Source: Candidatus Electronema aureum (GTDB lineage Bacteria > Desulfobacterota > Desulfobulbia > Desulfobulbales > Desulfobulbaceae). From it: DNA of 32,000 bases. The notes beneath the pieces were generated by a model. It searched no databases, was not told where the DNA came from, and worked only from the letters and a program-made list of their open reading frames with translations. This document shows, in pieces, positions 1 through 22,649 of the stretch (position 1 is its first letter; every line of letters starts with the position of its first letter). The DNA lies in the NCBI GenBank assembly GCA_004284765.1, contig NQJD01000002.1, positions 90,001 through 122,000 on the forward strand, read 5' to 3'. The position numbers and the translations under genes are program-made.

Positions 1-443
1 TCATCTTCATGCTCAAGACGCTGCTTCACTTCCTCGGCAAGAAAGTTGACAATTCCAGCAAAATGCCGACGTTTTCCGTAATGCGCTTGCTGCGCCAGGC
101 TTTCCGCCAGCACCTTGAGCACATCGCTGTGCGGATCATCGGCGGAGCTGAAATCAATCAGGTAAAAAACTGCTGATTCTTTCCGGTGTTGTGCAGCCAA
201 GGTCAGCAGGCTGGTTGCAATCATGCCTTTAGCCGCTTCATCGTCTTGCCCGACAATCGCCAGATTGCTGCCGCTTTGCCGCCGGAACTGCGCCACAGTC
301 GCCTCTTTGATGGCAATCGGCTCGCCCAGCCAAGCGGAAAAACGTTTCAGCGGCGCGGTAGTTGGAGGATGCAGCAGGCGCGTTGCCTTCAAAAACAATC
401 TGGCTTTGCGGGAAAGCGAAATTTTGCTGCCGGGCCAGAGCAT
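1..443 (-). CDS. Third (degenerate) FtsK-like P-loop domain of the EssC-like ATPase. It lies in a frame offset by one nt from ORF 238..3006 and runs off the left window edge (partial).
   Basis: Minus-strand translation of 3..443 in the offset frame is stop-free to the edge. It reads ..PLKRFSAWLGEPIAIKEATVAQFRRQSGSNLAIVGQDDEAAKGMIATSLLTLAAQHRKESAVFYLIDFSSADDPHSDVLKVLAESL... This parallels the entry into the canonical domain (IPLGPVGANRVQFLELGKGTSHHALIAGKIGSGKSTLLHVLIVNLALTYSPDEVQFYLIDFKKG), but GQDDEAAKG replaces Walker A. It is absent from the ORF track because it has no stop inside the window. Confidence 0.6.
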   Translation of the reverse strand, partial: MLWPGSKISLSRKARLFLKATRLLHPPTTAPLKRFSAWLGEPIAIKEATVAQFRRQSGSNLAIVGQDDEAAKGMIATSLLTLAAQHRKESAVFYLIDFSSADDPHSDVLKVLAESLAQQAHYGKRRHFAGIVNFLAEEVKQRLEHED

Positions 444-3006
444 TAATCTTGTCCAAATATTGATCCCGCTCCTCATCAGGCAGCCATGCGACTTGAAACG
501 GATTGTTGCCTTCAACCAAGCCGTTTGCCGCATTATAGATCGCCTCGCCGGGCCGGGAAAGCAGCCGCGCAGCCGCGTTGTCATCGCTCAGAATCAGGCG
601 GGAATCCGTTTCGCTGCATTGCAAGGCAATTCTGACCGCCATTTGATCAATGGTGCTGCGAGCTAAGGTGTAGGTTCCGGCCAAAGTCTGCGAACCCAAG
701 ATGATATGAACGCCGAAGGCCCGGCCTTGACGCACCAAGCGGTCTAAAATTTGCGAGACCTTGGCAGCGACCGGATCATCTTCTGTGAAAAATTCCTGAA
801 ATTCATCCACAAGCAGGATGATGCGCGGCATGATCTGGCTGGTTTTCCGGCGGTAATTTTTCAAATCGGCAACTTCCGCCTTGCGGAAGAGGTCGCCGCG
901 CCGCTTCAGCAAGGCATCTAAATCTTGCAGAACGCTCAGGCCAAACTCGCGTTCGCTTTCAATGGCGATTACCCGCGCATGAGGCAGAGCATGTGCGGCA
1001 TAGGTTTTGAACTCCACGCCTTTCTTGAAGTCAATCAGGTAGAACTGCACTTCATCAGGGCTGTAGGTGAGCGCCAAATTGACGATGAGGACATGCAGTA
1101 GCGTTGATTTGCCGGAGCCTATTTTGCCAGCAATCAGCGCGTGATGGGATGTTCCTTTGCCCAGCTCAAGAAATTGCACCCGGTTTGCGCCCACCGGGCC
1201 AAGCGGAATGCGGATTTCCTCGGCAGTGCTGCCGCGCTGCCATGCTTCGGGGCTTAGTCCAGCCTTTTCCAAGATTTTTGCAAAGGGAACTTCCACCCGC
1301 ATTGCTGCCACTGCCGCTTTGCCGACCTGACTGATGATGGTGTTGAAATATTCCTGCGCTGGCGGTTCATCCAGCGAGAGCAGGCATTTAAAGTCACGTG
1401 CCCCCCATATTAGCTGATTTTCATTTTCATACGAATGGAAAACTCTAGTATGTCGTCCAATATTTCTGATATCAAATCTATGCGGCATATTTTTTTCACG
1501 ATCGCAAATAATGATGGTGTAGATGCCGCAGCGCGGACCATTTTGGAGAATGCTGATCAAACGGCGCACTGCATCTTCGCTGAAGTTGGCTGGAAAATCA
1601 TTGATGATCAGGAAACGGTACGGTTCCGTCAGCTCGCCTGCATAGGAGTTGAATTCCTCAATGGTTTTGTAAGTGTTGCGCAAATATTTCTGAATGACAT
1701 TCTCAATATGCTCAGTCAGCTCGCCAAGCCGCTGCTCGATATGTCGCGGCTCTGACCATGCTTTTGTTGTGACCAAAGATTCATCGTAATCCGCCAGATG
1801 CAGAAATGCGGCGGCATTTTGACCAAGACCGACAGGATCAATAAAGGTGAAGCGCAGTTTTCCCGGCGGAATTGATGCGGTCAGGCGCAGCAGGAGGGAT
1901 TGAAGCTGCTTGGCGATGAGGTTTCTTTCCTCTCCGTTTATCGAGAAGAGAATTCCTTGCTCAGAAGGAAAGGGCAGCAGAGCGGGCATGGAAAACTGAC
2001 AGTCTTTGATTCTACTTTTGTCTCCATTCCATCGTCCGGTGGTCAGTTCTCCAATGCGAATCATGTCGGGCAGCTTTGATGCGACATTCCAGCTTTGCCA
2101 AAATTCATCATCCCAGCGTGGAGATGAAGTGTCAACAGCTTGCTTGTATGCTGAAATCCTCCGATGCAGTTCTGCTAATTTTGCCTCAAATTCTTTTTGC
2201 GCAGTTTGCCTGATATTTTCGTAATTATCCTCAATCGTTTGAATCCGCTTCTCGTGTTTCTTCTCATTCTCCGCCATTCTCTCATTATAGAGCCGTTCTT
2301 CGTTTTTAATGAGCTGGTCAGCCTTCTGCACGCATTCGTTGTATATTTCTTTTGCCTCTATCGTTATTTGCAAAATATGAGAGTAGTATTTCTTTGGTTT
2401 CAGATAGAAGGTAAATATATAATTAAACTCAATAGATATTGATACAACAAAGGAGAATATTGCCGCTGATAATATCCATAATGTATCGTCGATTCTGTTT
2501 AAGTAGCAAAAAAATTTAGCTATAGTTCCTGTTATTATCCATAAAAAGAAAAATTCTATAAAAAATAGCGCTAATAGACTTTTGACAGTTTTTTTATCAT
2601 TATTAATACACGAGTTTATTTTTCCAGAAAAATCATCTGCTTGATTAAAATATGATTTAAGCGCATCTATAGCAGCTCTATTTTTCTGTACAAATGATTC
2701 TCCTGACGGATATATATTAAATATATCAAAAATATAAGATATTTTTTCTTTTGACTTGCTGCTGCATATAGATAGGTTGTTCATGTATGAAGATAATTCT
2801 CTATTTTTATTATTTATTGCTTGCGTATCTGAATCAAATTGAGATTTAATTTCTTTAGCCGTGTAATTGTAACTATCAGTTGCCTGCTGTTTTTCTTGGT
2901 TGTATCTCCTTTCAACGTCCAGTTTCACCTGATTGTTATCTTTAATAATTTCACCAAATTGTGTCATCAAAACTGTCTGCATTTCATCAAAATTTATCTC
3001 GCTCAT
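238..3006 (-). CDS. Membrane-anchored multi-domain FtsK/SpoIIIE-family ATPase (EssC/EccC-like, T7SS-type)
   Basis: 922-aa ORF with AGGAGG 6 nt upstream of the ATG at 3006. It has two hydrophobic helices (LALFFIEFFFLWIITGTIAKFF and WILSAAIFSFVVSISIEFNYIFTF) followed by a coiled-coil stretch. Next comes a degenerate FtsK-like domain with no Walker A (ILFSINGEERNLIAKQ) and FLIINDF at the Walker B position. A canonical domain follows, with Walker A GKIGSGKST (1102..1128) and Walker B LLVDEFQ (DE at 802..807). The last ~45 codons (238..~380, Arg/Cys/Gly-rich) look like out-of-frame read-through. Confidence 0.85.
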   Translation of the reverse strand: MSEINFDEMQTVLMTQFGEIIKDNNQVKLDVERRYNQEKQQATDSYNYTAKEIKSQFDSDTQAINNKNRELSSYMNNLSICSSKSKEKISYIFDIFNIYPSGESFVQKNRAAIDALKSYFNQADDFSGKINSCINNDKKTVKSLLALFFIEFFFLWIITGTIAKFFCYLNRIDDTLWILSAAIFSFVVSISIEFNYIFTFYLKPKKYYSHILQITIEAKEIYNECVQKADQLIKNEERLYNERMAENEKKHEKRIQTIEDNYENIRQTAQKEFEAKLAELHRRISAYKQAVDTSSPRWDDEFWQSWNVASKLPDMIRIGELTTGRWNGDKSRIKDCQFSMPALLPFPSEQGILFSINGEERNLIAKQLQSLLLRLTASIPPGKLRFTFIDPVGLGQNAAAFLHLADYDESLVTTKAWSEPRHIEQRLGELTEHIENVIQKYLRNTYKTIEEFNSYAGELTEPYRFLIINDFPANFSEDAVRRLISILQNGPRCGIYTIIICDREKNMPHRFDIRNIGRHTRVFHSYENENQLIWGARDFKCLLSLDEPPAQEYFNTIISQVGKAAVAAMRVEVPFAKILEKAGLSPEAWQRGSTAEEIRIPLGPVGANRVQFLELGKGTSHHALIAGKIGSGKSTLLHVLIVNLALTYSPDEVQFYLIDFKKGVEFKTYAAHALPHARVIAIESEREFGLSVLQDLDALLKRRGDLFRKAEVADLKNYRRKTSQIMPRIILLVDEFQEFFTEDDPVAAKVSQILDRLVRQGRAFGVHIILGSQTLAGTYTLARSTIDQMAVRIALQCSETDSRLILSDDNAAARLLSRPGEAIYNAANGLVEGNNPFQVAWLPDEERDQYLDKINALARQQNFAFPQSQIVFEGNAPAASSNYRAAETFFRLAGRADCHQRGDCGAVPAAKRQQSGDCRARR

Positions 3007-3026
3007 TTTAATCCTCCTGTTGGTAT

Positions 3027-3054
3027 GTAGGGGCGAAAAATTTTTCGCCCCTAC
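3027..3054. repeat. 28-nt perfect palindrome GTAGGGGCGAAAAATTTTTCGCCCCTAC between the 78-aa gene and the ATPase gene
   Basis: Read directly: 14-nt arms with no spacer. On the coding (minus) strand it ends 20 nt before the ATPase ATG and just upstream of its AGGAGG. It is not followed by a U-tract. Confidence 0.9.
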
Positions 3055-3063
3055 CGAGTTTGA

Positions 3064-3300
3064 TTAACGCGCATTCCTTCTTATCTGCTCAAAAACATGC
3101 AGAAGATTATCCATTTCTCTCTGCACCAGTCGCACTTGATCAAATAACGGCATCATCACATTTCCGGCAAACTCCTGGCTCACCGGGTCATCCCATTCTG
3201 TTTTCGCCATCTCCCAGCGATGACGCAGCTTTCCCTGCTCTTCATGAAATTCATCAAGCTGCTGCGAAAGCAAAACTACGCATTGATCAAGACTTTCCAT
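3064..3300 (-). CDS. 78-aa helical-hairpin protein with a central W-x-D turn (WXG100-like partner or immunity protein)
   Basis: Start chosen at MESLDQ (ATG 3298..3300), which overlaps the last 14 nt of the upstream 388-aa gene. The longer M at 3360 would sit deep inside that gene. The sequence is helix-biased with TEWDDPVSQEF near the middle, similar to QTWRDQEHQKF in the 90-aa protein. Confidence 0.55.
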   Translation of the reverse strand: MESLDQCVVLLSQQLDEFHEEQGKLRHRWEMAKTEWDDPVSQEFAGNVMMPLFDQVRLVQREMDNLLHVFEQIRRNAR

Positions 3301-4453
3301 GAAAAATAACACCTTCGTGGTAAAAGATGAAATCCTGCTTCCCCTCTGCCAGCTCTGCATTCGCCCTGCTGATTACTTCCGCAACGTTTCCAGAAAACCT
3401 GCCGTTGCTGACAAAATGGAACTCATGAATTTGACCTGTCCTGATCACATTTTTAATCCCTTCAACCTGCTCCTGAAACTCCTTCAGCCTGCCGCTGTAC
3501 GTCCCATGCAAGGCATGTTTGAAATCAACCCCGATCTCTTGCCCGTCAATCCACTGGCCATTCTCATAAAATCGTCGGCAAATCAGCAAATCAGCTTCGA
3601 CAGACCGCCTTTTTCCCGGCAGCTCTTTTGGGTTGAATTTGATTGAAAAATCAAGCCGGTCTGTCTCCGGTTGAATAAACAGCCGCTGCCCGCCGTTGCC
3701 TGCGTTCGAGCCGGAGCGGATCAGCGCAGCCGTGCCCAGCAGCTCATACAGAAAACCGGCAACCGATTTGTTGCGGTTGGCCAGCCGCGATTTCAGGATA
3801 GTTCCTGCCCGCATATCCCGCTGCGGCGAAAACCGCAGCAAACCCAGCGCGTCCGGCGTGACTGATAAAATCAAAGCAACAGTCTGCGACAGCTGCTGAA
3901 GATAGTCAGGGTAGCAGCTTGCGCTGGTGGGATTTTCAGCGGCAATCTGAAGCAGTAGTTCTTTGATCTCTTCTGCCGAAGACGGCTCCTGCGCAGGAAG
4001 AGCCGCCGCGCCACCGTGTTCCGCAGAAGAAAATCCGGCAAAACCAGCTCCGCTTTGCGCATTGACAGCACGGTACGCCTCAAGCTCCATGAACTTCCGC
4101 GCTAAGAACGACTCGGCCTTGGGAATTTCCTCGTGCAAAAAGTGCTGCAACCGGACGGCTTGTTGATGATACTGAGCGGCAGCCTCCTGCGCCTGCCGCC
4201 GCCAATGCAGAACAGCGTTCAGCTCTTCCTCGGCATGACGCAAGTGCTGCCTGTCATTGCGGGAGTTGTCCTGAGCGCGTTCCAGCTCCCGCCGCCCGTG
4301 CCGCTGCCGTTCATCAAGCCATGCTTCCGCCCGCTTGATTTCCCGGTTCACGCGGTCAAGCGTCTGCTGCGCCTCGCTGCGGAATGCCGCCAAACTGCTT
4401 TGCAGCTCCAGCAAAGCCTGAAACGACCGGACATTGGCCTGATTCGCGTTCAT
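3287..4453 (-). CDS. 388-aa modular protein and candidate secreted effector: an N-terminal WXG100-like helical domain, an Ala/Gly/Ser linker, and a ~210-aa C-terminal globular domain
   Basis: The start ATG overlaps the TAA of the upstream gene (TAATG). The N-terminal ~130 aa is heptad-like and helical, with AEAWLDERQ at residue 45. The linker is NAQSGAGFAGFSSAEHGGAAALPAQEPSSAEE. The C-terminal part carries acidic and basic residues spaced like a PD-(D/E)xK core (GFLYELL .. RLDFSI .. VEADLLI .. GVDFKH). This fold assignment is tentative. Confidence 0.7.
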   Translation of the reverse strand: MNANQANVRSFQALLELQSSLAAFRSEAQQTLDRVNREIKRAEAWLDERQRHGRRELERAQDNSRNDRQHLRHAEEELNAVLHWRRQAQEAAAQYHQQAVRLQHFLHEEIPKAESFLARKFMELEAYRAVNAQSGAGFAGFSSAEHGGAAALPAQEPSSAEEIKELLLQIAAENPTSASCYPDYLQQLSQTVALILSVTPDALGLLRFSPQRDMRAGTILKSRLANRNKSVAGFLYELLGTAALIRSGSNAGNGGQRLFIQPETDRLDFSIKFNPKELPGKRRSVEADLLICRRFYENGQWIDGQEIGVDFKHALHGTYSGRLKEFQEQVEGIKNVIRTGQIHEFHFVSNGRFSGNVAEVISRANAELAEGKQDFIFYHEGVIFHGKS

Positions 4454-4725
4454 TATCGCTGATCGATATAGTCGCGGGCGCGTTGAGCCTTTTTCTGAAG
4501 GAAGGGGATATGCTGCTCAGAAATTTGCAAAAACCGCTCAATTTGTTTGACCGTCTGCTGATATTCCTGCGCAAATTTCTGATGCTCCTGATCACGCCAC
4601 GTCTGGCCCAGCGCATTAAACTGCCCGTTGAGCTGCCCCATGCTCTGCCGGAGCTGCATATTGAACTGCTTCAGGTTATGGGAAAAACGGGCCAGCTCTT
4701 CGGGATCAACAATAGCTTGCGGCAT
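4453..4725 (-). CDS. 90-aa WXG100/ESAT-6-like helical hairpin protein (W-x-D variant)
   Basis: Start moved to MPQAIVDPEEL because AGGAGG lies 7 nt upstream of the ATG at 4723..4725. The product is 90 aa and predicted all-helical, with the Trp turn QTWRD at residues 41-45, the position of W-x-G in WXG100 proteins. It is first in an operon that ends with an FtsK-like ATPase. Confidence 0.65.
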   Translation of the reverse strand: MPQAIVDPEELARFSHNLKQFNMQLRQSMGQLNGQFNALGQTWRDQEHQKFAQEYQQTVKQIERFLQISEQHIPFLQKKAQRARDYIDQR

Positions 4726-4769
4726 GGTGAGACCTCCTGTTGTGGTTGCGGTGCCGGTTGTAATTGCCC

Positions 4770-4799
4770 AGCATAACGCGCTGAGAAGCAAGCTGTCAA
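4770..4799 (-). promoter_or_regulatory. Candidate sigma-70 promoter for the T7SS-like operon
   Basis: On the minus strand: TTGACA (4794..4799), 18 nt spacer, TATGCT (4770..4775). It lies about 45 nt upstream of the 90-aa gene start, between that start and the DUF1015 stop. Confidence 0.4.
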
Positions 4800-4816
4800 C
4801 CGGCGCAGATGGTAGC

Positions 4817-6187
4817 TTACAACAAGCCCACCGCCTCATCTAACTTCCGTATCAGCAGGCCGGTGAGGAGCTTCGGATAGAAGAAGGTGGATTTGTGCGG
4901 CATGATGTTGCCGCTATCCGCGACCTTCAGTACCTGTGCCACCTTGGTTGGGTTAAGCAAGAGGAGCAGCGGGGTGTGGCCGTCCTCCACCACGCTCTGC
5001 TTAACTGCCGCATCCAAAGCCTCGTCCGGGTCACTGAGATAGCTAATCAGCTTGCTCGTGGCGCATTGCTCATGGCTGAGACCAAGGCAATGGCTGATCA
5101 GCACCTCAGAGAGAAGCACCACATCTAAATCACGCAGCACTGCTGGTTTATCAGCCAGCAGCGGCCCAGAGATCAGTGCCGCATCCTGAACAACCAGCAA
5201 GAAGGCGCGGTTTTCCCCAGCATGATACACCCCAAAGGCAGGCAGGCCACTGTCTGCGGCAGCTTCGTCCATTCGGTTGAAGGTCTCTGCGATCAGGCTT
5301 TCCCGGCTGCTGTTGCGCACTTCCTCCACCAGCAGGTGCTGCCGCATTCTGTCGGCAAGCTGGTCTGCACTCATCGCGCCTGGCCAGCGCACAAGGCGGT
5401 GCGTGGGCAGAACAGACAGGCCGGGGTCTTCGCAACCGCAGAGGTACATCATGATGAAGTTGCTCGGATGATCGATAGGCAGAGCAGGGTTCGCAGCTAA
5501 AGCACGGCGGCGATACTCCAAGGCAGTGGTGTAACGGTGATGGCCGTCAGCTATATACACCGGCTTATCCACAAAGAACCGCTGCACCTTAGCAATAGCT
5601 GCTGCATCTGTCACCCGCCAGAGGGTGTGCGTGTTGGCATTACCGTCTGTGACCTGAAGGAAAGCTTTGCTCTCCTGCACCTGCTCTAAGGTGCGGATCA
5701 CCTCTTGCTGCGGGTCAGAGTAGATGGAGAATATCTTGCTGAACTGCGCACTACAGGTCTCCATCAGCTTGAGACGGTCGCCAATGACACCGGCAAAGGT
5801 CTTCTCGTGCGGGCGGACAATGCCCTCGCTGAACTCCGCCAGCCCGACCAGACAGACTATGCCTTTGCGGGTCAGCCGTCTGCCGCCGGGGATAGTGTAG
5901 TCGGTGGCGTACAGGTAGATGGCGGGCTGCGCATCGCGGATCAGCACGGCTTCATCCTGCCAAGTAGCAAAGCGGTCGCGGGCTTGCAGATAGCGGCCAT
6001 CGTCCTCAGTCTCACCCTGCGAGGTGTTGCGCAGGTCAAGGTTGATCATCGAGTAGGGGTTCTTCTGGCGCAGCTTCTCGCCGTCTCTGGCAGAAATGAT
6101 GTCGTAGGGAGGAGTGATCACATCCTCCAGCCGGGCAATTTTCTCTTGGTTGTAGCGTACAGCGCGGAACGGGGCAACAGCAGCCAT
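4817..6187 (-). CDS. DUF1015 family protein
   Basis: The 456-aa N-terminus MAAVAPFRAVRYNQEKIARLEDVITPPYDIIS matches the characteristic DUF1015 opening (PF.A.RY ... PPYDVI). Confidence 0.85.
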   Translation of the reverse strand: MAAVAPFRAVRYNQEKIARLEDVITPPYDIISARDGEKLRQKNPYSMINLDLRNTSQGETEDDGRYLQARDRFATWQDEAVLIRDAQPAIYLYATDYTIPGGRRLTRKGIVCLVGLAEFSEGIVRPHEKTFAGVIGDRLKLMETCSAQFSKIFSIYSDPQQEVIRTLEQVQESKAFLQVTDGNANTHTLWRVTDAAAIAKVQRFFVDKPVYIADGHHRYTTALEYRRRALAANPALPIDHPSNFIMMYLCGCEDPGLSVLPTHRLVRWPGAMSADQLADRMRQHLLVEEVRNSSRESLIAETFNRMDEAAADSGLPAFGVYHAGENRAFLLVVQDAALISGPLLADKPAVLRDLDVVLLSEVLISHCLGLSHEQCATSKLISYLSDPDEALDAAVKQSVVEDGHTPLLLLLNPTKVAQVLKVADSGNIMPHKSTFFYPKLLTGLLIRKLDEAVGLL

Positions 6188-14248: not shown

Positions 14249-14323
14249 TGGGGTGTCGTCAAGCGGTAAGACACAAGGTTTTGATCCTTGCATTCGGGGG
14301 TTCGAATCCTCCCGCCCCAGCCA
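14249..14323 (+). tRNA. tRNA-Gln (anticodon UUG), CCA encoded
   Basis: Manual cloverleaf: acceptor TGGGGTG/CGCCCCA, anticodon stem CAAGG/CCTTG with loop TTTTGAT (anticodon TTG), T-arm GGGGGTTCGAATCCTCC and terminal CCA. Confidence 0.95.
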
Positions 14324-18215: not shown

Positions 18216-18810
18216 GCTGATCGGCATCACCGGCGGCATTGGTTCCGGCAAGAGCCGCGCCTGCCGTTTTCTCGCTGACTTAGGCGGCTGGCCGCTGCTC
18301 GATCTCGATCAAATCTGCCGTGCGCTGCTCCTGCCGCAGGCGCAGGGCTGGCTGGCCTTGAAAAAGCTGCTGCCCGCAGATTTCTTCACCGCCAATGGCG
18401 AGCTGAACCGTTCTAAACTGCGCGAGGCCATCTTTGCTGATGCTGGCCTGCGGCGGCAGATTGACAGCCTGCTGCATCCGCTGGCCAAGCAGGAAATGAC
18501 GGCGCAGGCCGCCCGGCTGAATGCGCCGCTGGTGCTGGCGGAAATCCCTTTGCTCTTTGAGGCGGGCTGGCAGGACAGCGTCAGCCAGATCGTGGTTGTT
18601 TATGCTGACGAGGCCGTGCGTCTGCGGCGGATTATGGAGCGCGATCAGGTCAGCGAAGAGCAGGCCCGGCGGGCCATTGCCGCGCAGATGCCGCTGGAGG
18701 ACAAAGCCCGGCTGGCTGATCATCTCATTGACAATTCAGCGGCTTGGGAGAGCACATGCGGTCAGTTGCGGCATGTGGCAAAGAAGATTTACATCACCAC
18801 CCGCAGCTAA
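18208..18810 (+). CDS. coaE: Dephospho-CoA kinase
   Basis: IGITGGIGSGKS is the P-loop typical of the CoaE N-terminus. A ~200-aa product results if the TTG at 18208 is the start. The long upstream part of ORF 17959..18810 overlaps rluD out of frame and is rejected. Confidence 0.85.
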   Translation: MPELIGITGGIGSGKSRACRFLADLGGWPLLDLDQICRALLLPQAQGWLALKKLLPADFFTANGELNRSKLREAIFADAGLRRQIDSLLHPLAKQEMTAQAARLNAPLVLAEIPLLFEAGWQDSVSQIVVVYADEAVRLRRIMERDQVSEEQARRAIAAQMPLEDKARLADHLIDNSAAWESTCGQLRHVAKKIYITTRS

Positions 18811-19160
18811 GTTGGTGGGCAAGCAAAAAGACACTTGCCCATCCTACGGTGTTGGTCAGACCCGCTGCCACAGGGTTGTATCAGGAATTAACTGATATTG
18901 GAGCCATCTGGAATTGCGTCGATAACTATTTGTGGCAGTACATCAACCCACCCCTTTGCAAAGTACTTATTTTTCGCTTCCATACTAGGGCCTGTTAACA
19001 CTACTTGCTTAATTAATAAACTTAAGAGTTACGCAGTTGAAATGAGAAGTTCAACCATTACAGCAAGTTGTCTTTTTGTTGTATAAATCTCCAGTTGAAT
19101 AAAATCAACGAGTTGGCAATCGAACTGCGTAACTCCTAAAACTTTTGTTATTGTTACCCT

Positions 19161-19496
19161 ATGGAAATAACACAGGAGCAATACGAGAAGATAGCCGACA
19201 GCTTGCCTCGTCAGAGAGGCAATATCACAATTGACAACCTCACGATGCTGAACGCCATGCTGCATGTCCTTGAACTTGGATACAAATGGCGTGAGATTCC
19301 AAGCATTTTTGGCAATTGGCATAGCATCTACACCCGTATGAGCAGATGGAGCAAAAACAGTGTGCTTGACCGGATTTTCGCACGATTGCAGCATGAGCAG
19401 ATACTGCATGTCAACACGGCGGCTTTTTCACTCGACAGCACGGTCATCAAAGTTCATCCTGACGGAACTGGGGCATTAGACCTCTTGCATAAGTAA
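19161..19496 (+). pseudogene. IS5-family (IS427/IS1031-like, DUF4096-type) transposase N-terminal fragment
   Basis: LTMLNAMLHVLELGYKWREIPSIFGNWHSIYTRMSRWSKNSVLDRIF...DSTVIKVH matches the conserved N-terminal region of this transposase group. The ORF stops just where the DDE domain should begin. Confidence 0.75.
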
Positions 19497-19519
19497 AATC
19501 TATATGCTAACGATGGTGA

Positions 19520-19975
19520 ATGAAATACGAAACAGTGCATAGCCTCAGCGAGGAAGATTTTAAACGATCAACAGGAGTTCAGCGTTCGACCTTCGCCAAG
19601 ATGCTTGAGGTTGTCGAGCAAGGGCTGCGCAATTTTGGCAGACCGCCAAAATTGGGCCGGGCCGATCAGCTCCTGCTGACCTTGATGTATTGGCTCGAAT
19701 ATCGGACTGAATTTCACATTGGCCTTGCCTATGGCATCAGCGAGTCGGCGGTGTGCCGGACGATTAAAAAGATTGAAAACGCGCTCATTAAGTCGGAGCA
19801 ATTTCACCTACCCAATAAAAAAGCACTTCAGTCCGACAGCATAAAATTTGAAATTACCCTCGTTGATGCCACAGAACAGCCGATTGAACGCCCAAAAAAA
19901 AACAGCGGCAGCATTACAGCGGCAAAAAAAAGTGCCATACTCAGAAAGCGCAGATAATTTCAATGGGTAAACCCC
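19520..19975 (+). pseudogene. IS5/Harbinger-like (HTH_Tnp_4 plus DDE_Tnp_4) transposase fragment, frameshifted and 3'-truncated
   Basis: The HTH region is LLLTLMYWLEYRTEFHIGLAYGISESAVCRTIKKI, followed by the first catalytic segment LVDATEQPIERPKK. After the A9 run (19894..19902) the expected continuation QRQHYSGKKKCHTQKAQII appears only in another frame. The remainder of the DDE domain is absent. Confidence 0.7.
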
Positions 19976-20033
19976 CGGCTTTGCCGGTGGATACTTACTC
20001 AAAAGTAGGTAGCAACTTGGGTTATAATACAAG

Positions 20034-20054
20034 GAAAAATTTTTCGCCCCTACC
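20034..20054 (+). repeat. Half-copy (21 nt exact) of the 3027..3054 palindrome in the leader of the 158-aa membrane protein gene
   Basis: GAAAAATTTTTCGCCCCTACC is identical at 3035..3055 and 20034..20054. In gene-sense orientation the CCCCTAC end lies exactly 20 nt upstream of the start codon at both loci. Confidence 0.9.
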
Positions 20055-20073
20055 TGCCAAAGAGGACAACCCA

Positions 20074-20550
20074 ATGAATATTGACATGCTGGTAAAACAT
20101 CTTCAGAACCCCTTTGCCTTGGCCGGAATCGCCTTCCTGCTTGCGGCGGCGTTCTGGTTTTTTCTGAGCAAAGGACGGAAAAGCAACAAGGCTGCATCAG
20201 GGCGGCTGGACGCAACGCAGGTGATTTATCTTCTCAGCCTGCTGGCTATGCTTGTCCTTGCCGTGCTGATGTGGAACGACCGTGCCATTTCCATGACGCT
20301 GCTCGGCAGTCTGCTGGGCAGCGTCGTCAGCGGCCTGCCGCTTTTGAAGCCTGCGAAGGAAGACAAGTCTGTTCTCAGCACGGTTGGCGAGCAAAGCCCC
20401 TCAGTCCGCAGCGGCGGCAAGGTGACAATCAGCTACGGCGGCGCGGTGTCCGGCGGGAAAAAGGCAGGTGCTGGGCAGGCAGTCACGCAGGGCGGACAAA
20501 GCCCGGCGGTCGAGGCGAAGAAAGATGTGGAAATCAAGTATGAGAAATAA
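20074..20550 (+). CDS. 158-aa predicted membrane protein with a C-terminal tail carrying two QSP..V.I.Y motifs
   Basis: The start is set at MNIDML (ATG 20074) because the upstream 37 codons run into the IS remnant. There are three hydrophobic helices (FALAGIAFLLAAAFWFFL, VIYLLSLLAMLVLAVLMW, ISMTLLGSLLGSVVSGLPLL). The tail contains EQSPSVRSGGKVTISYGG and GGQSPAVEAKKDVEIKYEK. Confidence 0.6.
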   Translation: MNIDMLVKHLQNPFALAGIAFLLAAAFWFFLSKGRKSNKAASGRLDATQVIYLLSLLAMLVLAVLMWNDRAISMTLLGSLLGSVVSGLPLLKPAKEDKSVLSTVGEQSPSVRSGGKVTISYGGAVSGGKKAGAGQAVTQGGQSPAVEAKKDVEIKYEK

Positions 20551-20636
20551 GGCGGCTGGCGTGACGAGGCAGTCGCCGTCTATGAGAAGGTATATTTTTT
20601 CTATTTCCTCATAGGCCGCGCCTGTCTTTTAATAGG

Positions 20637-20684
20637 AAAAATAGATGAGGAAATAGACGCGGCCTATCTGCTCATCTATTTTTT
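20637..20684. terminator. Candidate bidirectional Rho-independent terminator
   Basis: A 13-bp perfect stem AAAAATAGATGAG (20637..20649) / CTCATCTATTTTT (20671..20683) with a 21-nt partly self-paired loop. An A-run lies on one side and a T-run on the other. Confidence 0.55.
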
Positions 20685-20730
20685 GGATTAAAAGGTATAA
20701 AAAATATACTTTCCGGCAGGAGGGGGCGAT

Positions 20731-22408
20731 ATGCAGATGACAACGGGCAATCAGTCGCCGGTGATTGAGGCGGGCGGCAATGTCACGGTCAATTACGGCC
20801 TCGACGAGGAGCGCGTCAAAGCCATGCTGGAGCGGCAGCAGGAGGAGCTGTTCAGGAAGCTGCGCGAGTCCGGCTTTGCGGCGGATGACGGCGAACGCCG
20901 CCTGCTGGAGCAGCAGTTGCAGGCGGTCTCGGCGAAACTGGCCGACATCGAGCGGAGCTACGAGGAGGAGCTGGCGCGGCCAACTTCCCGAAGCCCAGAT
21001 TGAGAACGCGCAAGCCAATTTGCGGCAGGGCGACAAGGACGCGGCCAAATCAGTCTTTCACGGGGTGCTTGACAAGGAAGGCGCGTCAGTCGCGCTGGCC
21101 GCGTATCAGCTTGGGCAGATGGCGGAGGGCGATTTGAATTACGCCGAGGCCATGCGCATGTACAAAAAGGCGGTTGTGCTGGAGGAGGACAAGCCGGAGT
21201 ATCTGCTTGCCGCTGGGAAAATGGCCCGCAAACTTGCGGAGTTCAAGCAGGCGCAGGAATGGCTGGAGCATCTGCGGGAGATCAGGGAGGCGGAGGGAGA
21301 TGGTGCTAACCTCGGCAACGTTCTTAACGAGTTAGCTTTAGTTTATAAAGATCAATTTCAGTTGGCAAAGGCAGATTTTCTGCATCGACGTGCTCTTGAT
21401 GTCAGAGAAAAGATATTTGGCGAAGAACATCAGGATACAGCAGAGAGTTTAAACGATCTTGCCTTTTTATGTAGAGAGCAGTGCAGATATGAGGAGGCTG
21501 AGTCGTTATTTAAACGTGCCGTTGATACCAGAGAGAAAATATTTGGTAAAGATCACCCTGATGTAGCAGAGAGCTTGAATAATCTGGCTGGACTGTATCG
21601 AACGCAGGCGCGTTACACGGAAGCAGAGTTGCTGTATCAACGTTCTTTGGAAATTAAAGAGAAAACGTTAGTACCTCATCATCCTTCCATAGCGACAAGT
21701 TTGAACAATATAGCTATGTTCTATAAAAACAAAGGAAAATATTTTGATGCAGAATTACTCTACCAGCGTGCTCTTTCCATAAAAGAAAAATCAATAGGTG
21801 AAGCCCATCCCTCTTTCGCGATCACATTAAATAATCTTGTAAATCTTTATAGAGATCAGGGTAGATATATCGAAGCTGAACCGTTATATTATCGTGCTCT
21901 TAACGTTAGAGAGAAAATATTTGGAAGAGACCATCAGCATATAGCTGGCAGCTACGAGGGCATCGCCACATTATACAAAAATCAAGGAAAGTGCGCTGAA
22001 GCAGAACATCTTTACCAGAAAGCCATTGATATAAAAGAAAGACTTCTTGGCAAAGATCATCTTTCTCTTGCTGTAACAATATGCAACCTTGCTGATCTTT
22101 ATCAAAATCAAGAAATGTATCAAGAGGCTGAAAAGTTAAATAGCCGTGCTCTTTATATTCGAGAAGAAATCCTTGGAAAGGAGCATCCCTCTGTGGCAAA
22201 CAGTCTAAACAATTTCGCTAATCTCTATAGATTACAAAAAAGATACGCGGAAGCAGAACCACTGTATCAACGTGCCCTATCCATTATGAGGGAAAAATTT
22301 CCCGGCGGCCATCCAAAGGTTGATCGCTATCAGAAAGACTACGACGAGCTGAAACAGAAGATGGCGGAGCAGCAAGCCGCCGCCACTCAAGAGAAAAATC
22401 ATGTTTAA
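20731..22408 (+). CDS. TPR protein with eight kinesin-light-chain-type 42-aa repeats and a ~85-aa N-terminal domain. The reading frame is interrupted near 20970..20985.
   Basis: GGAGGGGG lies upstream of the ATG at 20731. The N-terminal frame (MQMTTGNQSPVIEAGGNVTVNYGLDEERVKAML...YEEELAR) stops at 21003. The TPR frame (..QLPEAQIENAQANLRQGDKDAAKSVF..) is the +1 frame and is open to 22408. The repeats follow the pattern AESLNNLAGLYRTQARYTEAELLYQRSLEIKEKTLVPHHPSI, eight times. Confidence 0.7.
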
Positions 22409-22649
22409 TCTGCAATTGCATGTCCGCCCGCAAACTGAGCAGCGGCTGCGGGCAATCTTGGCCCGTGCGCAGGATAACGCAATGTGCAAGAAAATAAAAA
22501 AGAGAACAATATCAATATTCCCTAGTCGGTGCTGAAGTCGGAGCAGTAGAGGAACGGGTGGCAGATATTTGATGACCTGCCATGCTTTATAACTGTTTTC
22601 CCTCAAAATGCTATTCATCCTAAGGAGCTAAAAATTGTTTGCGGCTACC

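Follow-up and report, generated by a model that had tools for sequence, protein, structure and literature searches.

The 28-nt palindrome described here is, with a probability of roughly 90%, a widespread double-foot REP, the cognate element of a subclass 2.4 TnpA-REP/RAYT, and its two occurrences in the window (the whole 32,000-nt stretch of DNA that was analyzed) are related by family and not by shared regulation. The DNA is that of Candidatus Electronema aureum, a cable bacterium of fresh water whose chromosome measures 2.94 Mb. The main value of the result is a correction. An earlier note on this DNA had offered three roles for the repeat. The proposal of a REP-like element used as an insertion or recombination target proved essentially right, as the palindrome is a catalogued double-foot REP and its truncated copy lies at a synteny breakpoint beside IS remnants. 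In contrast, a shared operator or RNA element that would link the T7SS-like operon (locus 1) with the membrane/TPR gene pair (locus 2) did not hold up: the same 28-mer stands beside unrelated genes in many phyla, and the copy at locus 2 is one-armed and unfolded. The repeat is thus not a regulatory link between the T7SS-like operon and the membrane/TPR genes. The features of the two loci are listed below by window position.

238..3006, minus strand: FtsK/SpoIIIE (EssC-like) ATPase gene, 922 aa, identified by Pfam scan, downstream of the REP
3007..3026, minus strand: leader of the ATPase gene, 20 nt long; its Shine-Dalgarno sequence (AGGAGG, 3018-3013) is unpaired when the hairpin forms
3027..3054, no strand assigned: intact double-foot REP, each strand carrying a GTAG foot, with 12 bp in the stem and AATT as the loop, listed in Quentin et al. 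2018, Table S1
3064..3300, minus strand: 78-aa gene of the T7SS-like cluster, from the gene call in an independent assembly (L124) mapped to the window and from the ORF list
19161..19957, plus strand: two IS-family transposase remnants (DUF4096 and HTH_Tnp_4 fragments), identified by domain scan, upstream of the truncated REP
20034..20054, plus strand: truncated REP, with the right arm and loop retained and the first 8 nt (GTAGGGGC) swapped for unrelated sequence
20074..20550, plus strand: 158-aa membrane-protein gene, with homology to relatives from 20099 onward only

At locus 1, positions 3027-3054 read GTAGGGGCGAAAAATTTTTCGCCCCTAC, which is a perfect palindrome of 28 nt as the earlier note had stated, and the right arm, GAAAAATTTTTCGCCCCTACC, has an exact second occurrence at 20034-20054, upstream of the 158-aa gene. 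When the window was searched with up to three mismatches, only these two sites were found, while 100 dinucleotide-preserving shuffles gave 0 matches. A third, weak candidate at 22629-22649 (76% identical) was rejected as chance-level when its sequence was read. Base counts confirmed that CCCCTAC ends 20 nt before the ATG at both loci (3026-3007, followed by a minus-strand ATG, at locus 1; 20054-20073, with the ATG at 20074, at locus 2). The likeness claimed for the two leaders shrank on inspection to 5 of 7 equal bases beside the repeat and 9 of 20 in total, and the coding sequences past the ATG are unrelated; loci 1 and 2 have no meaningful likeness past the repeat itself. When folded as RNA, the locus 1 palindrome forms a hairpin with a 12-bp stem and a 4-nt loop (-20.4 kcal/mol, z = -6.9) and leaves AGGAGG at 3018-3013 unpaired, whereas the half-copy at locus 2 forms no stable stem-loop (-4.4 kcal/mol, z = +1.1). 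A scan of the whole window against Rfam at gathering thresholds called only a tRNA at 14249-14320, and neither repeat locus matched.

The identity of the palindrome is given by a published catalogue. In their classification of TnpA-Y1 proteins, Quentin, Siguier, Chandler and Fichant (2018, BMC Genomics 19:475) described the "double foot" REPs of subclass 2.4, which carry a 5' GT[AG]G and a 3' C[TC]AC, and Table S1 of that work contains GTAGGGGCGAAAAATTTTTCGCCCCTAC itself, with 12-nt stems, an AATT loop, an MFE of -20.40 and double foot = T, for the protein BAM00060.1 of a subclass 2.4 REPtron. The locus 1 element has GTAG...CTAC at 3027-3054 and a stable stem-loop with an MFE equal to the Table S1 value, so that the 28-nt sequence, the feet, the stem, the loop and the MFE are all identical to the BAM00060.1 entry. 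REP insertions within tnpA-REP, located between HuH and Y and with the frame kept, are unique to subclass 2.4 (Quentin et al. 2018), and Y1 genes bearing an in-frame REP between HuH and Y were reproduced here. The occurrence of this REP family with a subclass 2.4 tnpA-REP gene, in-gene copies included, was seen in other genomes and in Table S1. These results show that the window sequence is identical to a catalogued double-foot REP and that this REP is associated with subclass 2.4 Y1 transposase genes. The window differs from the catalogued cases in that its copies are orphans (no transposase gene in the window), one of them truncated, and in its host, a cable bacterium that is apparently outside the 2018 survey. 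In the full-text literature, neither the DNA string nor the peptide GAKNFSPL gave a match, and the only match was in the supplementary Table S1. Since both the kind of element and its exact sequence were already published, the window adds a new host and no new principle.

GTAG-tagged REPs are found downstream of ORFs, sometimes within genes, and are RAYT-associated (Di Nocera et al. 2013, BMC Genomics 14:522). The present element shares with them and with the REP/BIME of Escherichia coli the GTAG foot beside a G+C-rich stem-loop, the extragenic placement just downstream of ORFs and the occasional in-frame intragenic copy. In classical GTAG REPs, however, the tetranucleotide is unpaired and found at one end only, and the elements are largely species-specific, whereas in the present element each strand of a perfect palindrome carries the foot, and the sequence is letter-identical across phyla. 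The Pseudomonas REPIN/RAYT system (Bertels and Rainey 2011; Bertels, Gallie and Rainey 2017) is similar in that short palindromic non-autonomous elements are tied to a single-copy domesticated Y1 transposase. Yet REPINs are inverted REP pairs with a spacer that are inherited vertically within a lineage, while the element studied here is a single compact palindrome with a patchy cross-phylum distribution. Quentin et al. (2018) suggested that a compact single palindrome could come from a central deletion in a dimer.

The breadth of this distribution became clear when the 20-mer shared by the two loci was scanned against species-representative genomes. At least 117 stretches of unrelated genomes matched, from a dozen or more phyla, and the flanks were always unrelated. 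Among the matches listed, the hosts were cyanobacteria, Desulfobacterota, Bacteroidota, Chlorobi, Chloroflexota and Pseudomonadota (beta- and gammaproteobacteria), together with Omnitrophota, Latescibacterota, Aminicenantes, Spirochaetales, Planctomycetia and Synergistaceae, and included the isolates Thiothrix fructosivorans, Fluviicola chungangensis, Desulfosarcina variabilis, Geomonas paludis and Actinobacillus porcinus. Among the same listed matches, the 28-mer was perfect at 50 sites, while at 83 sites one arm was exact and its partner mostly near-perfect, and the sequence common to all 133 sites was only about 28 nt long, with unrelated flanks. Other 28-nt palindromes were present at the same loci, with the GTAG...CTAC frame kept and the interior different, and variants of the present family were often altered in both arms at once (GTAGGTGCG...CGCACCTAC and GTAGGGGTG...CACCCCTAC), showing that the palindrome is maintained through paired changes. 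Several genomes among the matches listed had 2-6 loci (six in Spirulina DLM2.Bin59 and four each in several others), and contigs often ended at the repeat, as is expected of a dispersed repeat. For comparison, about 42 kb of E. aureum DNA contains one full copy and one half copy, and no orthologs of the window loci were found among the 117 pattern-matched loci listed. As a separate observation, in a Capnocytophaga MAG (L094 2597-2915) the REP and degenerate versions of it form a tandem, BIME-like array at a spacing of about 125-167 nt, with a conserved CTGAAATCGCATT linker.

We examined the placement of the palindrome relative to genes at the 107 sites with sufficient flank, with random positions in the same loci as the control. 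Of open frames with 100 or more codons, 69 ended no more than 30 nt from the palindrome, as opposed to 10.0 +/- 1.8 at random, and 55 of the 107 sites were inside an open frame of at least 150 codons, compared with 94.6 of 107 at random. The copies thus tend to lie near stops and outside long open frames. The locus 1 copy, which begins 9 nt past the stop of the 78-aa gene in the mRNA sense, is therefore in a typical REP position. Distances to downstream start codons, on the other hand, were flat over 0-100 nt at 130 sites with no peak at 20 nt, and the spacing at the orthologous site of a relative (L127) is 24 nt. The identical spacing, to which the earlier note had attached meaning, is best read as a coincidence.

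These data also bear on the idea that the repeat is an operator shared by the two loci, where a dimeric transcription factor would bind and place the T7SS-like operon and the membrane/TPR pair under common control. Such an operator is favored by the perfect palindrome, by its location ahead of start codons and by a 20-nt spacing that is the same at both loci. However, locus 2 retains one arm only, locus 1 is intra-operonic, no promoter-like site was called at either locus, the identical 28-mer lies beside unrelated genes in a dozen or more phyla, and the orthologous L127 site has an altered loop base in addition to its different spacing. With a half-site at locus 2 and no promoter calls, the window does not contain an intact palindrome in a promoter region at both sites, and we regard a shared operator as extremely unlikely.

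To find recurrent neighbors of the repeat, ORFs within 2.5 kb of the sites were clustered. The most recurrent family, present at 14 of the 117 loci listed, was a RAYT-like Y1/HUH transposase of about 180-220 aa with an N-terminal RRSIRLxGYDY, the HUH motif MPNHIHG and a WQRNYWEHIIR...YIxxNP segment. In most of the 14 loci the palindrome is inside the transposase gene, where it is translated in frame as VGAKNFSPL (or, in another reading frame, as RGEKFFAPT) and is positioned between the HUH motif and the catalytic Tyr/C-terminal segment; extra copies just outside the gene were found in L065, L081 and L117. The family scored around the threshold against Pfam Y1_Tnp, and its matches to NCBIfam REP_Tyr_transpos (E = 1e-15 to 1e-17) were nevertheless below the curated cutoff. 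The only solved relative of the family is E. coli TnpA-REP (4ER8). In a phmmer alignment to 4ER8, the HUH motif and residues W94, Q95, E100, H101, R104 and Y115 were conserved; the cognate proteins outside the window thus have the HUH motif, the catalytic Tyr (Y115) and the GTAG-recognition residues (W94, Q95, E100, H101 and R104) that the E. coli protein has.

A database search placed at least 7982 clusters in the RAYT-like family. VGAKNFSPL or its tandem fragments were found in the linker, of up to 96 residues, in nearly all of the best 120 of these clusters, a ranking biased towards the peptide because the query contained it. Three proteins (P0027, P0030 and P0106) have linkers of up to 96 residues with tandem half-palindrome peptides, (VGAKNV)n or (VGAKH)n, which suggests repeated slippage or re-insertion of REP fragments in the gene. 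When the whole window was searched by tblastn for a Y1 transposase, no RAYT gene was found and only the 9-aa palindrome peptide matched, and no E. aureum proteins were among the best 120 matches of two RAYT family searches.

Relatives of E. aureum among the cable bacteria do have the transposase. Intact RAYT genes are represented by proteins of Electronema sp. and Electrothrix, and Candidatus Electronema halotolerans has a RAYT pseudogene with an internal palindrome copy (L095 7248-7760). The E. halotolerans gene has a WQGNY substitution as well as an in-frame TAA; in at least one cable bacterium, the cognate transposase is decaying. Copies of the palindrome are also present in Electronema sp. 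TJ and JC, and a variant is present in L121. A palindrome of a different family (GTAGGGACAATTCATGAATTGTCCCTAC) lies after the E. halotolerans pseudogene at L095 7776-7803, and a second, unrelated 28-nt double-foot palindrome, GTAGGTTCACGGCATGCCGTGAACCTAC, is found beside a PIN-domain gene at L124 9377-9404, a site that is about 2.5 kb past the window start in E. aureum.

On the model of E. coli TnpA-REP, we propose that the transposase would bind, cut and rejoin the single-stranded hairpin with its GTAG foot, and that the cutting and rejoining would scatter copies into short intergenic spacers, mostly right after stop codons. The element would travel with its transposase gene, which bears the palindrome in frame, and this joint travel would explain the letter-perfect identity across phyla. 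That cross-phylum conservation, combined with residence of the repeat within its own transposase gene, is striking. One could go further and regard the in-frame copy inside the transposase gene as the master template of the REP family, a step that we consider unlikely to be correct. The hairpin would then be part of the ORF, and the element and the enzyme would be inseparable by recombination and transferred together, which would explain why one 28-mer is letter-perfect in a dozen or more phyla while classical REPs are species-specific. In a weaker variant of the same idea, the E. aureum copy may have been co-opted within the T7SS-like cluster to serve as an RNA hairpin inside the operon. Under the preferred reading, that of a dispersed double-foot REP, locus 1 is an intact copy inherited with the accessory T7SS-like cluster, and locus 2 is a dead right-arm remnant left by a rearrangement beside IS debris. 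The annotation should accordingly give a REP at 3027 and a REP remnant at 20034, and in genomes of cable bacteria the repeat is of use for flagging DNA that is accessory or rearranged.

The palindrome of locus 1 lies between the stop of the small gene (3064-3066) and the ATG of the ATPase gene (3006-3004), both on the minus strand. The longest ORF of the small gene has 98 aa, and 78 aa is its length in the gene call of the independent assembly L124. Upstream of the palindrome, also on the minus strand, are a DUF1015 gene, a WXG100 gene, a 388-aa gene and the 78-aa gene; given this set and the FtsK/SpoIIIE ATPase downstream, we call the cluster T7SS-like. In a tblastn comparison the ATPase gene, on the minus strand at window 238-3006 and 1-377, is split by a frameshift near 334-377 (922 + 226 aa, compared with an ortholog of 1151 aa that is 90% identical). 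As the same frameshift recurs in the independent E. aureum assembly L124, the gene may be a pseudogene.

Comparison with relatives points to inheritance of the repeat with the cluster. L118 and L119 are 93% identical in nucleotides over argB-DUF1015, yet they are without the entire T7SS-like cluster, and the homology to them stops at a synteny break at window position 4826. L127, which has the cluster and an ATPase that is 90% identical, keeps the REP at the equivalent site as GTAGGGGCGAAAGATTTTTCGCCCCTAC; the only base change within the 28-mer is in the loop, and the REP-to-ATG spacing is 24 nt owing to a 4-nt insertion. A homolog at 68% identity has no REP upstream. From these comparisons, the locus 1 copy was inherited with the accessory gene cluster, with a 20-nt spacing that is not conserved.

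A by-product at locus 1 would be a hairpin of -20 kcal/mol in the operon mRNA, which, judging from E. coli REP biology, may shield the message upstream of it or reduce read-through to the ATPase gene. The stronger proposal is that the hairpin is under selection in the T7SS-like operon as an mRNA stabilizer, an attenuator or a translational coupler, the REP having been exapted for differential expression of the small proteins and the ATPase. This is a tentative possibility, on the doubtful side. Consistent with it are the strong fold (-20.4 kcal/mol), the location 9 nt after the stop of the 78-aa gene, the retention of the same site in L127 with a change within the 28-mer in the loop only, and the fact that REPs are known as stabilizers of upstream mRNA. 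Retention across so short a divergence, however, requires no selection, and the repeat is absent from the homolog at 68% identity. Fine-tuning of the operon is also doubtful because the downstream ATPase gene is frameshifted in E. aureum, and such a role cannot extend to locus 2, where there is no fold. Finally, a reading as an intrinsic (Rho-independent) terminator was rejected: the tails, ATACCAAC and CGAGTTTG, are without a U-tract, and no terminator-like site was called at 2800-3400. No promoter-like site was called in a scan at the locus 1 repeat.

Three other features of the locus 1 region were observed. The 5' third of the ATPase gene (window 2001-3000) is unusually A+T-rich, with a GC of 0.335 compared with about 0.5-0.58 around it, and encodes a low-complexity N-terminal region rich in Asn, Lys and Ile. 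L118 and L119 have a BNR-like gene and a SAM synthetase in place of the T7SS-like cluster (window 1-4825), which comprises the WXG100, 388-aa, 78-aa and FtsK/SpoIIIE genes. Past the window start, L124 has toxin-antitoxin-like genes (FitA-like RHH and PIN) after the T7SS-like cluster.

At locus 2, the truncated copy is at a rearranged junction. Relatives have the membrane-protein gene behind a biotin carboxylase gene, across a 57-nt spacer that contains no REP, and their protein starts with MNLH (L121 1818-1821) as opposed to MNIDMLVKHLQ in the window (20074-20098). Homology to relatives does not set in until 20099, inside the gene, which puts the first 8 codons and the ATG, together with the leader and the half-REP, on the rearranged side of the breakpoint. 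Judged from these alignments, the start of the membrane-protein gene was replaced by the rearrangement that brought in the half-REP. The arrangement agrees with REPs as rearrangement sites or as bystanders. The earlier note had placed the copy directly at the junction with the IS remnant; the IS-related ORF in fact ends at 19957, and 76 nt of unassigned sequence precede the half-copy. No promoter or terminator was called in a scan at the locus 2 repeat.

The neighborhood of IS remnants and the synteny breakpoint raise the alternative that the repeat is the end of a MITE or IS, or an IS target-site footprint, so that the two loci would be two insertions of one larger mobile element with a terminal repeat including GAAAAATTTTTCGCCCCTAC. 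Against this, beyond 28 nt nothing is common to loci 1 and 2 or to the 117 foreign loci listed, there are no direct target duplications, and 76 nt separate the end of the IS ORF from the half-copy. When 18801-20074 was compared by BLAST with all fetched loci, no IS terminus could be defined, and the left half of the REP was not found on the far side of the IS remnants in the same search. The repeat therefore shows no conserved sequence beyond itself, no paired inverted ends and no target-site duplication, and this alternative is very unlikely. The half-copy is better accounted for as a remnant of a dispersed double-foot REP.

Several minor observations concern the surroundings of locus 2. Directly after the coaE stop, the minus strand at 18813-18850 has an imperfect hairpin with a GTAG foot (GTAGGATGGGCAAG...CTTGCCCACCAAC), which lies at the opposite edge of the IS-remnant region and may be a REP of another type. 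The segment at 19013-19109, about 97 nt long, has internal inverted repeats (GAGTTACGCAGTT / AACTGCGTAACTC) and recurs with 80% identity at L125 3641-3736, about 18 kb away in the E. aureum genome; it has the appearance of a small MITE-like repeat. Between the membrane-protein and TPR genes, at 20626-20694, is an imperfect inverted repeat with 31-nt arms that are 84% complementary and a 7-nt spacer, which is conserved in L121 and L123. The TPR gene (20765-22408) contains internal repeats with a period of 252 nt, and its longest ORF has 547 aa compared with 331 aa in a relative, a difference in length that suggests repeat expansion.
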